Below, piece by piece: positions 11,713 through 15,440 of a DNA stretch of 49,606 nt. The notes under the pieces are model-generated. The model saw only the letters and a program-made list of their open reading frames with translations, did not search any database and was not told where the DNA came from. The translations under genes were made by a program, and so were the position numbers. The stretch spans positions 1-49,606 of the forward strand of contig CAZWIL010000002.1 in assembly GCA_964634175.1 (NCBI GenBank), read 5' to 3'. This stretch comes from an uncultured Vicinamibacteraceae bacterium (lineage in GTDB: Bacteria; Acidobacteriota; Vicinamibacteria; Vicinamibacterales; UBA8438). The first letter of the stretch is position 1. Every line of letters begins with the position of its first letter.

Positions 11713-13158
11713 ATGGAACGACCGTTGAAATCTCTAACTCTGACAGCGCTTGCGGTCCTCGTCTGTCTATTAGCCCCAGCCCTAGCGGTTGTTGCTGTAG
11801 CGGGCCAACCCTCAGACGAGGTGACGTTCACAAAGGACGTACTGCCGATTCTGCAGCGGTCGTGTCAGAAGTGTCACCGGCCCGGCACCGCAGCTCCGAT
11901 GTCACTGCTGACCTACGACGACGCACGTCCATGGGCCCGCGGCATCAAAGACCAGGTTACTGCGCGACGGATGCCACCTTGGCACCTCGACCGGTCGATT
12001 GGTCAATTTCAAGCCGACCCATCACTGAGCGATGACGAGATCAATACCATTGCTACCTGGGTCGACCGTGGTGCGCCACGTGGTAACCCCGCTGATGCCC
12101 CGCCGCCGCTAGAACTTGACAACCTGCAACAGTGGACGTACGGCGACCCCGATCTGGTTGTCTCCATGAAAGAAGGCTTCCTGATTCCGGCCGAAGGCCC
12201 CGACTTCTATCCGTCGGAAATCGTCGATCCAGGCCTGACTGAGGACCGCTATGTCAAATGGGTTCAGATCATCCCGTCGGCTTGGTGCTGTGTGCATCAC
12301 TCACACGTCTATGTCAGTGTGCCGGAAACAGCCGAGGACCTCGAAGAGTTTAAGCTGGGCATGGGATCAAACACGGACGAAATTGATCTGATCGAATACG
12401 CGATGGGAAGCAGCGGCCAGTTCTACCCGGATGGTACGGGCAGGAAACTCCCGGCTGGTGGGCAGTTCAGATTTGCGCCGCACTACCACCCCTGGGGCGA
12501 AGAAACACGTGATTTCCAAGAGGTCGGAATCAAGTTTTATCCAAAAGATGAGGTGCCGGAGTTAATCGTGACGGCTCATCGCTTACGCACCGGTATTGGT
12601 AATGACTGGGTACTCAACCGTGAAGAAGTCGAAGATCGACTGCTGCGAGCTGGATACGACCTTGACTTACACGGAACAGAAATGCCCGCAGACGCGTGGG
12701 TAGATGACAACACCCTGAACGGCATTGCTCGTATGAGCATCCCGCCCCATACCGTGGCCAAGCATGAACGGTTTTGGCCACTTCCTGATCCGGCGTTGTT
12801 GTTGAGTTTCCAGCCGCACATGCACTTCCGCGGTGACCGGATGTTGCTTGAAGCGATTCACCTGGATGGTCGCCGCGAGATTCTAATCGATGTCAATAAT
12901 TACGAGCAGACGTGGCAACTCGTGTACCCCTACAAAGAACCGCATCTCTTCCCAAAGGGCACGGTACTGCATAGTGTGACGTGGCACGACAACACCTCGA
13001 ACAACCGCCACAATGTCGACCCGTCAGCATGGATCGGGTGGGGTGGTCGAACCATGGACGAAATGGGTCACGGGTGGAGCGATATCGCCTTCATGACTGA
13101 AGAACAATACCAAGAGCGTGTGGAGAAACGCGAGCAGGACCGCGCTCAGGACCAGTAA
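11713..13158 (+). CDS. Secreted cytochrome c (Planctomycete-type CxxCH module) fused to a PHM/DBH-like type II copper monooxygenase domain, paralogue A
   Basis: Signal peptide. [28 protein letters not shown] (CxxCH at 11863..11877). Then CCVHHSH (H195, H196), APHYHPWG (H257, H259), QPHMHFRG (H369, H371) and GGRTMDEMG (M448, M451), which mirror the CuH (H,H,H) and CuM (H,H,M) ligand sets of peptidylglycine alpha-hydroxylating monooxygenase. SD AAGGA lies 7 nt upstream. Confidence 0.7.
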   Translation: [481 protein letters not shown]

Positions 13159-13198
13159 CGAGGCCCAGAAACGTCGAGAGCGAATAACGGAGGATTGT

Positions 13199-14623
13199 AT
13201 GGCTGCACGGTGCAAAATTCTGATCATACTGTCGGCGGTTTTTGTGTTGGGGAGCGGGTTGCCAAGTGTCGTCTTGGCCAACAGCGACGACCCAACGTTC
13301 ACAAAGGACGTGCTGCCAATTTTGCAGCGCTCGTGTCAGAAATGCCATCGACCCGGCACGGCAGCACCCATGTCCCTCCTGACCTATCAGGAAACTCGTC
13401 CCTGGGCACGTTCAATTAAGGACCGGGTCAGCCAACGGCAAATGCCTCCGTGGCACCTTGATCGCAGTATCGGCACTTACAAAGACGACCCGTCTCTAAC
13501 CGACCAAGACATCGACACTATCGTCTCCTGGGTAGATAACGGCGCGCCGCAAGGGAACCCGGAAGACGCACCAGCCCCACTTGAGTTGGCCGCCTTTGAC
13601 GAATGGGTTCGAGGTGAACCTGACCTGATCGTGAGCATGAAAAACGGTTTTACGATTCCAGCTGAAGGCCCTGACCTCTTTCCTTCTGAAATCGTAGACT
13701 CTGGCCTAACCGAAGATCGGTATATGCAATGGGTTCAACTCATTACCACCGCTCACTGCTGTGTCCACCACGAGCACGTGTATGCATTTGTTGGTTCAGA
13801 TAGTCCAGACGGCAACGAAGCTGACAATGTGGAAACCACACACGTCACCGAGTACGTGATGGGGAATAACGGTGATGACTTCCCCGACGGAGCAGGCAAA
13901 CTACTTCGCGCCGGATCGAAGTTTCGTTTTGCTCCTCACTACCACCCGTGGGGCGAAGAAGTTCACGACATTTCAGAAGTGGGAATCAAATTTTATCCGA
14001 GAGAAGTGACACCTGAACTCGAAGTCACATCCCATCGAATTCGAACGGGTGTCGGTAACGACTGGACCCTTAACCGTGAAAAAGTCGAAGACTATTTACT
14101 TCGGCAAGGGTATGACCTTGACCTTGCTGCCGATGCTCCGGTCGAGGAGTTTCTGACTGAGGCCGACGTGAACAGTCTCGCGCAGCTCAGTATTCCACCC
14201 AACACGGTCGCCCGATCTGAGCGTTTTCTTCGATTGGATACGCCGGCGATGGTAATCAACTTCCAGCCGCACATGCATTTCAGAGGCCAGCGGATGCTAC
14301 TTGAAGCGATTCATATCGATGGGCGGCGTGAAATCCTGACGGATGTCCCTCGGTACGAACAGGTCTGGCAATTAACCTACACATACGACAAGCCTCACAT
14401 CTTCCCAGCAGGAACGGTCCTGCATTCCGTGGCTTGGCATGACAACACATCGGCCAATCGACACAACCCAGACCCGTCAGCGTGGATTGGCTGGGGCGGG
14501 CGAACCATGGACGACATGGGAAACGCGTGGACCGATATCGCCTTCATGACGGAGGAACAGTACGAGAAACTCCGAGACCAACGTGACCGCGAAGCGCGAG
14601 CCGAAGCCGATGATGGTCAGTAG
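13199..14623 (+). CDS. Secreted cytochrome c fused to a PHM/DBH-like copper monooxygenase domain, paralogue B
   Basis: Collinear with paralogue A, and most aligned residues are identical by eye. [52 protein letters not shown] and GGRTMDDMG are all retained. Start taken at ATG 13199 (GGAGG at 13188..13192), not the track start 13118, which overlaps gene A. Confidence 0.7.
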   Translation: [474 protein letters not shown]

Positions 14624-15440
14624 AAGAAATACAGTGGTATTTCGTTTTGGACTGAGAAGACTTGTCGCAATCAGTATTGGACTGTGCTTGGCCGTCAGTC
14701 AATACGCGACCCTGCCGTCTCATGCGCAGACCCAGTTTTTTGACGCAGGGCAGGAACGACAGGCGATCTATCCAGCATACGAAGGTTTTACGCGTAATGA
14801 AGATGGGTCATGGACCCTCTCATTCGCATATTTCAGCCACAACTCCACAACTGTCACTATTGCACCAGGCCCCGGGAACTTCTTTGAACCTGGGCAAGGC
14901 GATATCGGTCAACCGACAACATTTCATCCTGGCCATCATCGTTGGGAGTGCATTGTTGTAGTGGACGCCGACTTCGACGGAAACTTGCGTTGGACCCTCT
15001 CCCACGAAGACATCACCACCTCCACGAGCGAATCGATGCTCCAGTACAGTTGGGAATTCAGCGAAAGTGATAAGCGAAACGCGCTGCGGTCGATTGACAA
15101 TCCAACGGCGGTTCCGCGTGGCGTCTGCATCAATCGTCCACCTATTGTTCGAGTGCTCGGATATGGCGGAAGCCGAGGTCCACACGAATTACACATCAAG
15201 GTGGGTGAAGGCCTAAAGCTCTTTGGTAGTGTTCGTGACGAAGGTTTACCGAGGAATGGAACCCTCACATCCTCTTGGACCAAAATGAGCGGTCCTGGAC
15301 AAGTCTCGTTCGATAACGGCACCGAACCTAGGACACTGGCATTCTTTACGGCAGCTGGTGAATATGAGCTCCAACTCACCGGAAACGATTCAGAACTTCA
15401 GAACACCACGACGGTCAAGGTTGTCGTCGCGGCGTCCTAA
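14610..15440 (+). CDS. Secreted hypothetical protein: His-rich N-domain (HPGHHRWEC) plus a C-terminal PKD/Ig-like domain
   Basis: ATGATG at 14610 overlaps the stop of paralogue B (14621..14623) by 14 nt. Signal peptide RRLVAISIGLCLAVSQYATLPSHA-Q. The C-terminal LKLFGSVRDEGLPRNGTLTSSWTKMSGPGQVSFDN...YELQLTGND follows the PKD-like repeat pattern. The start could also be GTG 14583. Confidence 0.6.
   Translation: MMVSRRNTVVFRFGLRRLVAISIGLCLAVSQYATLPSHAQTQFFDAGQERQAIYPAYEGFTRNEDGSWTLSFAYFSHNSTTVTIAPGPGNFFEPGQGDIGQPTTFHPGHHRWECIVVVDADFDGNLRWTLSHEDITTSTSESMLQYSWEFSESDKRNALRSIDNPTAVPRGVCINRPPIVRVLGYGGSRGPHELHIKVGEGLKLFGSVRDEGLPRNGTLTSSWTKMSGPGQVSFDNGTEPRTLAFFTAAGEYELQLTGNDSELQNTTTVKVVVAAS

Follow-up and report, generated by a model that had tools for sequence, protein, structure and literature searches.

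Genes A, B and C stand one after the other on the forward strand of a 49,606-nt stretch of DNA, referred to here as the window (contig CAZWIL010000002.1 of assembly GCA_964634175.1, positions 1 to 49,606), which comes from an uncultured soil/marine Vicinamibacteraceae bacterium of the phylum Acidobacteriota. Judged by sequence profiles and a predicted structure, the products of A and B are divergent members of the superfamily of peptidylglycine alpha-hydroxylating monooxygenase (PHM) and dopamine beta-monooxygenase (DBH), in this case fused to a c-type cytochrome. The proposal that we favour, with moderate confidence, is that both work as exported, periplasmic and cytochrome-fed oxygenases of the non-coupled binuclear copper type, on the PHM/DBH branch, with C as their docking or substrate-presenting subunit. 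The fold, the homology, the conservation of the ligands, the export signals and the linkage to a partner, fusions included, are the observations on which this proposal is built. An earlier reading of the same DNA, made from the letters alone (the sequence-only reading), had put forward a c-type haem joined to a PHM/DBH-type two-copper core, present in tandem and with a coupled third gene, and this central idea is supported by the tests of fold, profile, conservation and neighbourhood presented below.

A predicted PHM/DBH-like two-copper core with a fused haem-c domain

Gene A (11713..13158, forward strand) is an open reading frame of 481 aa, laid out as a Sec signal peptide, a haem-c domain (residues ~38-120), a PHM/DBH-like CuH domain (~145-290), a long helical linker (~293-340) and a CuM domain (~345-460), CuH and CuM being the names of the two copper sites in PHM. 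Gene B (13199..14623, forward strand) is an open reading frame of 474 aa with a GGAGG 6 nt 5' of its ATG, and encodes a paralogue of the same architecture with all the ligand motifs. The two proteins are 64% identical across 460 residues, and each has one signal peptide, one CxxCH haem-c domain and one two-domain core, as expected from the sequence-only reading, which had described them as adjacent paralogues of one architecture. The open reading frames and motifs that it had listed were all found in their places in both genes: [23 protein letters not shown] and GGRTMDEMG in A, and [23 protein letters not shown] and GGRTMDDMG in B. N-terminal hydrophobic signal sequences are present in A, B and C alike, and in the case of A and B export signals are needed for the attachment of haem c.

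The relationship to PHM and DBH is most evident from the predicted structure. An AlphaFold2 model of A, built on 27 homologues, reached a moderate quality, with a predicted local distance difference test (pLDDT) of 71.8 and a predicted template modelling score (pTM) of 0.67. When it was compared with the PDB by Foldseek, the best 31 matches belonged without exception to human DBH or rat PHM, with E values from 1.3e-12 to 4e-9, a probability of 1.0 and a template modelling (TM) score of ~0.55 on the target, and were headed by human DBH 4zel (E 1.3e-12, 16% identity), with the rat PHM entries at E 1e-11 to 4e-9; the ranks below them were taken by unrelated cupins with a TM score of ~0.1. The model thus shows the two-domain beta-sandwich core fold of the PHM/DBH superfamily, and the structural comparison comes out as the sequence-only reading would predict.

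At the sequence level, the resemblance only emerges when distant relatives are included. Searching A against the PDB gave nothing at E up to 10, and a narrow profile built around A (A1) found in the same database no more than a weak resemblance to the haem motif of hydrazine synthase alpha (E 1), and reached a probability of 0.3% when aligned by hhalign with PHM. The register was obtained only with a broad profile of 86 diverse representatives, which are 28-42% identical to A and have a mean column identity of 24%. These are the 86 relatives to which all conservation counts below refer. Aligned with the catalytic core of rat PHM (PHMcc, its sequence checked against PDB 1opm), this profile gave a probability of 95.3% and an E of 2.4e-8 over 244 aligned columns. 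The Pfam scan of A and B yielded sub-threshold matches only, to Cytochrome_CBB3 (E ~1e-3), Cytochrom_C and Haem_bd and, in A, to Cu2_monoox_C (PF03712; E 0.054, 13.4 bits against a cut-off of 23, residues 363-433), which was not matched by B. Among the 86 relatives, Cu2_monoox_C is matched by 43 (best E 3.3e-7) and Cu2_monooxygen (PF01082) by nine (best E 9e-5), and some Planctomycetota relatives have a precomputed match to PF03712. An NCBIfam scan returned no family for A, B or C. Taken together, the hhalign and Foldseek scores (E 2.4e-8 and 1e-12, respectively) and the invariance of the ligand residues at 24% column identity argue that the resemblance of the core of A and B to PHM/DBH goes well beyond chance.

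The ligands of the eukaryotic enzymes are H107/H108/H172 (CuH) and H242/H244/M314 (CuM) in PHM, and H262/H263/H333 (CuH) and H412/H414/M487 (CuM) in DBH (PMC4846438). The histidine pair H195-H196 of A (VHH; 12295..12300) aligns to PHM H107/H108 ('tvHHmll'), the third CuH ligand H257 (PHY; 12481..12483) to H172 ('lqvHYgd'), and H369-M-H371 of the CuM site (PHMH; 12817..12825) to H242/H244 ('rvHtHhlg'); these five histidines are present in all 86 relatives. M451 (D-E-M; 13063..13065), the CuM thioether, belongs to a segment ([10 protein letters not shown]) that aligns to the one around PHM M314 ('tssDEMcnly'), and it is kept in 82 relatives, the other four being C-terminally truncated sequences. 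All these codons are on the forward strand. The predicted ligand set of A is, then, H195/H196/H257 for CuH and H369/H371/M451 for CuM, both sites presumably being occupied by copper. The sets proposed by the sequence-only reading are largely retained, in PHM register, but two of their members are lost: H259, formerly assigned to CuH, is found in only 42 of the 86 relatives, and M448, formerly assigned to CuM, varies (W/T/V/I). The two cysteines that precede the histidine pair in CCVHHSH (C192 and C193) are variable as well, as is H198.

The spacing of the ligands follows PHM closely within each domain and departs from it between them. H196 and H257 are 61 residues apart in A (64 in PHM) and H371 and M451 are 80 apart (70 in PHM), whereas the distance from H257 to H369 is 112 residues against 70, giving a linker ~42 residues longer, in agreement with the extension of about 40 residues already noticed in the sequence. 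The residues with which PHM (EC 1.14.17.3) binds its peptidylglycine substrate are replaced in the hhalign register: R240 by Q367, N316 by H453 and Y318 by W455. These columns are themselves variable across the 86 relatives (Q in 18, H in seven and W in 23, respectively), so that, to judge from the alignment, A and B do not act on a glycine-extended peptide bound as it is in PHM.

The haem-c attachment motif of A (C51, C54 and H55; 11863..11877, forward strand) is conserved in all 86 relatives. Class I cytochromes c carry a distal methionine at a usual position, and the likely sixth haem ligand of A is accordingly placed at M87, which opens the M-P-P-W stretch (11971..11982, forward strand) of an invariant R-x-M-P-P-W motif. 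M87 and P88 are found in all 86 relatives, P89 in 85 and W90 in 81. The sequence-only reading had instead pointed to the methionine of APMSL (M63), which is the poorer candidate since it is present in only 76. The features of a class I c-type cytochrome (CxxCH, distal methionine and export signal) are all present in the sequences of A and B, and Cytochrome_CBB3 is matched by 60 of the relatives at E up to 0.01. The label of a Planctomycete-type cytochrome (PSCyt1), proposed in the same reading, finds no support in Pfam: this family was matched neither by A or B, at E up to 1, nor by the 86 relatives. The profile searches as a whole thus favour the copper core, through the PHM alignment and the Pfam copper models matched by the relatives, but not that particular type of haem domain.

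The Ig-like/PKD partner and the spread of the family

Gene C (14610..15440, forward strand) encodes 276 aa, or slightly fewer if the GTG at 14634 is the start, and its product consists of a signal peptide, a family-specific Ig-like beta-sandwich (~50-185) and a PKD domain (~195-274). The ATG at 14610 overlaps the stop of B by 14 nt, as had been pointed out before, but a close homologue begins at the equivalent of GTG 14634 (MVFRF...), so that the linkage is tight and the overlap itself uncertain. The PKD domain is identified by Pfam as K319L-like_PKD (E 1.2e-7, 32.1 bits against a cut-off of 27, residues 203-273). An AlphaFold2 model of C (pLDDT 86) shows two Ig-like sandwiches, the C-terminal one being the PKD domain, for which the PKD structures 6ihb_R and 4jgu_A match with TM scores of 0.67-0.77 on the target, all the fold matches being of the generic tandem Ig/PKD kind; the best PDB sequence match is 2yrl. 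For the N-terminal domain, the fold search and the PDB sequence search gave no specific structural or profile relative.

The association between C and the haem-copper proteins was surveyed at 80 genomic loci, the best ones found with the narrow profile A1 and hence biased towards Vicinamibacterales, whose neighbouring genes were read by tblastn with the proteins of the window. These loci contain 99 family genes, 84 of which have a C-like gene within 600 bp: 56 divergent upstream, 21 downstream on the same strand, five convergent and two upstream on the same strand. Of the other 15, most lie at contig ends, open an A–B tandem or have their C-like gene at a distance of 0.7-4 kb. Paralogues only 40% identical to A are still paired in this way, with partners 26-33% identical to C. 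Furthermore, C-like domains are fused to the core itself in four of 150 representatives, N-terminally in P0125 (hhalign 99.6%, E 1.5e-24), in a split form in P0131 (98.4%), and C-terminally in P0129 and P0135. The coupling of the third gene that the sequence-only reading had suspected is thereby upheld, both by the neighbourhoods and by the natural fusions. The linkage marks C as a true, conserved partner of the haem-copper protein, and the fusions provide Rosetta-stone evidence for a physical or functional complex, in which C would most likely be a docking or substrate-binding/presenting subunit.

Other roles for C were considered. The protein is indeed secreted, with an HPGHHRWEC cluster and a PKD/Ig-like C-terminus, all of which had been described before, and a metal-handling function had been suggested on these grounds. 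However, this His/Cys cluster is confined to the subfamily: in its place, paralogous partners have FYNRRQQFVF or FVPGRAWGVF, the SHN motif of C is NRN or NSN in them, and the fused forms likewise have neither the His pair nor the Cys of the cluster. An N-terminal metal site was therefore rejected as a family-wide feature, and the metal-handling idea is weak. A DOMON-like haem domain found no support in Pfam, in the top 50 fold matches or in the PDB sequence search. C was also discarded as a peptide substrate of the PHM type, since it folds into two domains and its C-terminus varies and does not end in Gly.

Nearly all of the 80 best loci come from metagenome-assembled genomes of Vicinamibacterales, Vicinamibacteria or Acidobacteriota, two being labelled Bifidobacterium, and the nearest ones, at 96-98% amino-acid identity, belong to uncultured Vicinamibacteraceae. 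The A–B–C order is kept in L001 (98%) and L004, whereas in the syntenic locus L002 (96% identical) A is followed directly by C, without B, which makes B a presence/absence polymorphism among genomes 96-98% identical in the flanking genes. B is, on the distribution of its orthologues, not a recent duplicate, since B-type orthologues (72-74% identity) occur in other Vicinamibacterales as single genes with their own C (L060, L061, L063 and L067). Three diverged haem-copper paralogues may also be found within ~7 kb, most with their own C-like partner, as in L013 (5273-11475), L023 (4813-11574) and L028 (4621-11570); L023 has three complete pairs, and L013 and L028 have three family genes each, with two and three C-like genes, respectively. 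Such side-by-side pairs of diverged paralogues and partners suggest a diversification of substrates.

The family extends far beyond these loci. In a word-indexed search, over 6,293 clusters (90% identity) were recovered under the names 'cytochrome c', 'mono/diheme cytochrome c family protein' or 'hypothetical'. An exhaustive profile search of 1.84 billion representatives gave 17,755 of them (50%-identity clusters) with an E of 1e-3 or below, and 2,963 with 1e-30 or below. In 30 of the best 150 representatives, the core is preceded by an N-terminal AhpC/TSA redoxin domain. This redoxin-fused branch runs to over 7,462 clusters, which belong to Planctomycetota in every case that carries a name, and its database names ('redoxin domain-containing protein', 'peroxiredoxin' or 'thiol-disulfide oxidoreductase ResA') are derived from the N-terminal domain only, as in the Symmachiella macrocystis protein annotated as 'ResA'. 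Its members keep every haem and copper ligand, P0181 for instance reading CVDCH, RMPPWH, VVHH, QVHY, PHMH and WDEM. The redoxin domain of P0181, P0246, P0209, P0451 and the protein at L081:8001-9995 has a single 'CP' cysteine motif before the haem-copper core, and redoxin-fused forms often end in EF-hands, TPR or PQQ-like domains. The one locus examined, from S. macrocystis, has no C-like neighbour and no informative neighbours. A and B fall in the Acidobacteriota branch, where the redoxin domain is missing and the Ig-like/PKD partner is kept.

Relation to known systems, proposed mechanism and alternatives

Typical of the PHM/DBH superfamily ('copper type II ascorbate-dependent monooxygenases') are two bound copper ions ~11 Å from each other, ascorbate as the reductant and an O2-dependent hydroxylation of C-H bonds. 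PHMcc (1PHM/1OPM) is the closest known system in terms of the core, with which A and B share the two beta-sandwich domains, the HH...H and HxH...M sets in the same order and with similar spacing, and local motifs such as H-Y and D-E-M. However, A is only ~12-14% identical to it in sequence, and the disulfides and peptidylglycine-binding residues of PHM are not kept, nor is there a PAL partner domain. Contrary to PHM, which belongs to the eukaryotic secretory pathway, has no haem domain and uses ascorbate, A and B are bacterial, periplasmic and provided with an N-terminal haem-c domain. The extra N-terminal domain of DBH is a DOMON domain, an Ig-like fold that serves elsewhere, as in cellobiose dehydrogenase, to bind haem b. 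DBH, TBH and MOXD1 resemble A and B in having the same copper ligand sets (PMC4846438) and an additional N-terminal domain on the core, but in A and B this domain is a class-I-like c-type cytochrome with CxxCH, and a dimerisation domain is missing. The Ig-like module comes in trans, from gene C, and no DOMON signature was seen in it by Pfam or among the top fold matches. The redoxin-fused Planctomycetota proteins have the same haem-c and two-copper core, with all the ligands and the same family profile, and differ in the additional redoxin domain and, at the single locus mentioned above, in the lack of a C-like neighbour.

Functional parallels exist outside the superfamily. In the pair formed by lytic polysaccharide monooxygenases (LPMO) and cellobiose dehydrogenase, and in the cytochrome c-fused copper nitrite reductases, a haem feeds single electrons to an extracytoplasmic mononuclear copper. 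Their copper folds and ligands are unrelated to those of A and B (a histidine brace and type 1/type 2 cupredoxin sites, respectively), so that the analogy is a functional one only. A 2025 review of PHM chemistry lists PHM, DBM, TBM and the plant BURP cyclases as the only relatives (PMC12164859), and full-text literature searches found no description of a bacterial fusion between cytochrome c and PHM/DBH. The catalytic core is of a known kind, and what is new is its occurrence in bacteria, the haem c fused to it as donor, the Ig/PKD protein as dedicated partner and a pocket that departs from PHM. The domain combination is probably visible in superfamily-level database annotations, and the novelty is one of recognition and characterisation, not of an unseen sequence class.

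According to the mechanism that we propose, the His/Met haem c (C51/C54/H55 and M87) would take single electrons from periplasmic cytochromes c or cupredoxins, for which the cupredoxin encoded at 8562..9224 and the dihaem cytochromes c beside the PQQ (pyrroloquinoline quinone) dehydrogenases of the window would be nearby candidates. The haem would then pass these electrons to the His3 site CuH (H195, H196 and H257), and CuH to the His2Met site CuM (H369, H371 and M451), where O2 would be bound and the substrate hydroxylated or otherwise oxidised, two electrons entering through the haem c per turnover. The haem domain would thus replace ascorbate, the reductant of the eukaryotic enzymes, which is absent from the periplasm; the fused haem c and the periplasmic location make ascorbate an unlikely donor. 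From the observations set out at the beginning we infer the occupancy of the copper and haem sites, the direction of electron flow, the dependence on O2, the complex with C and the substrate.

Several points weigh against such a cytochrome-fed oxygenase. The Pfam matches of A and B themselves all fall below threshold, the model of A is weak in the haem-binding loop, the linker and the Met loop, and no biochemically characterised member of the family was found in the literature searched. The PHM substrate-binding residues are not conserved, by which the reaction type is left unfixed, and beyond C the genomic context gives no clear clue to the substrate. In the Planctomycetota branch, the place of the C partner is taken by an AhpC/TSA redoxin, which hints at peroxide or thiol chemistry rather than at an O2-dependent hydroxylation. 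Finally, the flow of electrons could be reversed, from the substrate to copper, from copper to haem and from there to the respiratory chain. A and B would in that case be dehydrogenases or oxidases that oxidise their substrate at copper and pass the electrons on, by way of CuH and the haem c attached to the core, to cytochromes of the periplasm and to a terminal oxidase, much as periplasmic dehydrogenases of the copper or PQQ kind do through their cytochrome c exit domains. Such a function is suggested by the abundance of periplasmic dehydrogenase/cytochrome c pairs in the window (the PQQ pairs at 3569-6044 and 19722-22155) and by the fact that a fused cytochrome c is a common electron exit domain in bacterial periplasmic dehydrogenases, and the computed data do not fix the direction of electron flow. 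Against it, a CuM site with a Met ligand is tuned to the reaction of Cu(I) with O2. Besides, all characterised members of the fold with His3 and His2Met sites, namely PHM, DBH and TBH, are O2-activating monooxygenases (PMC4846438, PMC12164859), and we regard a dehydrogenase as fairly unlikely.

The redoxin domains lend themselves to another explanation, by which the family would consist of cytochrome-c-dependent reductases acting on a small oxidant, be it H2O2 or an organic peroxide, nitrite, NO or O2 (reduced to water), with a role in detoxification or respiration. An AhpC/TSA domain sits on the same core in 30 of the 150 best representatives and in more than 7,000 Planctomycetota clusters, and the copper sites of PHM bind nitrite, azide, CO and peroxide in crystals, according to the titles of PDB entries. 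However, the branch of A and B is devoid of redoxin and retains an Ig-like/PKD partner, a type of domain usually tied to the binding of macromolecules, and the diverged pairs of L023, L013 and L028 have the appearance of substrate diversification, for which a small-molecule reductase would have no need; we consider this explanation improbable for A and B. It is more improbable still that the proteins have retained the fold for a non-catalytic purpose, such as carrying electrons, storing or chaperoning copper, or sensing. PNGase F does share the PHM fold without copper, no activity or substrate is known for the family, and the PHM substrate-binding residues are not conserved, but both sets of copper ligands and the haem ligands are invariant across sequences only ~30-40% identical, which argues for a working two-copper core, and so large a multi-copy family is more typical of enzymes.

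PHM, DBH and TBH are textbook eukaryotic enzymes, DBH making noradrenaline and PHM the amidated peptide hormones, and both their chemistry and the long-range electron transfer between their copper sites are still debated. A haem-fused bacterial branch of oxygenases would offer a soluble, genetically tractable and spectroscopically convenient model for these questions, with the haem as an internal reporter and one-electron trigger, and the conserved partner and the natural fusions would make it a concrete two-component system for reconstitution. It would also bring new oxygenase activities, abundant in soil and marine Acidobacteriota and in Planctomycetota, and the renaming of thousands of entries now called only 'cytochrome c', 'hypothetical', 'peroxiredoxin' or 'ResA'. 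In a broader and more tentative version, to which we give somewhat less than an even chance, A and B would represent a widespread class of periplasmic monooxygenases, whose two-copper centre is powered directly by the respiratory chain, without ascorbate, through the fused cytochrome c, whose dedicated subunit is the Ig-like/PKD protein, and whose organic, possibly polymeric or peptide, substrates have driven the diversification of the pairs. If true, this class would be a bacterial counterpart of the LPMO/cytochrome partnership and a possible prokaryotic root of the animal enzymes that make hormones and neurotransmitters.

Genomic surroundings

This stretch of the window is rich in periplasmic redox enzymes, in the form of a cupredoxin and two PQQ/dihaem pairs. 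The cupredoxin gene (8562..9224, forward strand) encodes a secreted protein of the plastocyanin/azurin type with a C-terminal CarboxypepD_reg-like beta-sandwich, a possible electron carrier, and is syntenic upstream of A in the closest relatives only (L002 and L003). The two pairs, at 3569-6044 on the forward strand and 19722-22155 on the reverse strand, each consist of a beta-propeller PQQ-dependent dehydrogenase and an adjoining dihaem cytochrome c. Phosphate scavenging is represented by a TAT-exported (twin-arginine translocation) alkaline phosphatase PhoX just upstream of A (9307-10842, forward strand) and, within 25967-32394 on the reverse strand, by a PhoR/PhoB-like two-component pair, a Pst-type phosphate ATP-binding cassette (ABC) transporter and a porin, all with no demonstrated connection to A, B or C.

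Upstream of A there is an unusually long non-coding stretch of 870 nt (10843-11712), for which no credible Rfam match was obtained, and which is 95% identical in L002, too close for constraint to be judged. The promoter and terminator scans of the locus remained at background level. Downstream, the gap between C and the gene of a BD-FAE esterase is ~1 kb in the window (15441-16441) and ~200 nt in L001 and L002, a difference that looks like a recent insertion or deletion. Within this gap lies an open reading frame of 187 aa (15612-16175, reverse strand) with no family match.

In L024 (9173-13522) and at equivalent positions in ~30 loci of one clade of Vicinamibacterales, the haem-copper gene is followed by genes for a DmpA-like peptidase S58, a sodium:solute symporter and a transporter of the sodium:sulfate/citrate type, and in the window the symporter follows the BD-FAE esterase instead of peptidase S58. 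Secreted esterases, peptidases and the sodium:solute symporter recur near the A/C pair in one clade, a context that gives a weak hint of a link to the uptake of small organic products.

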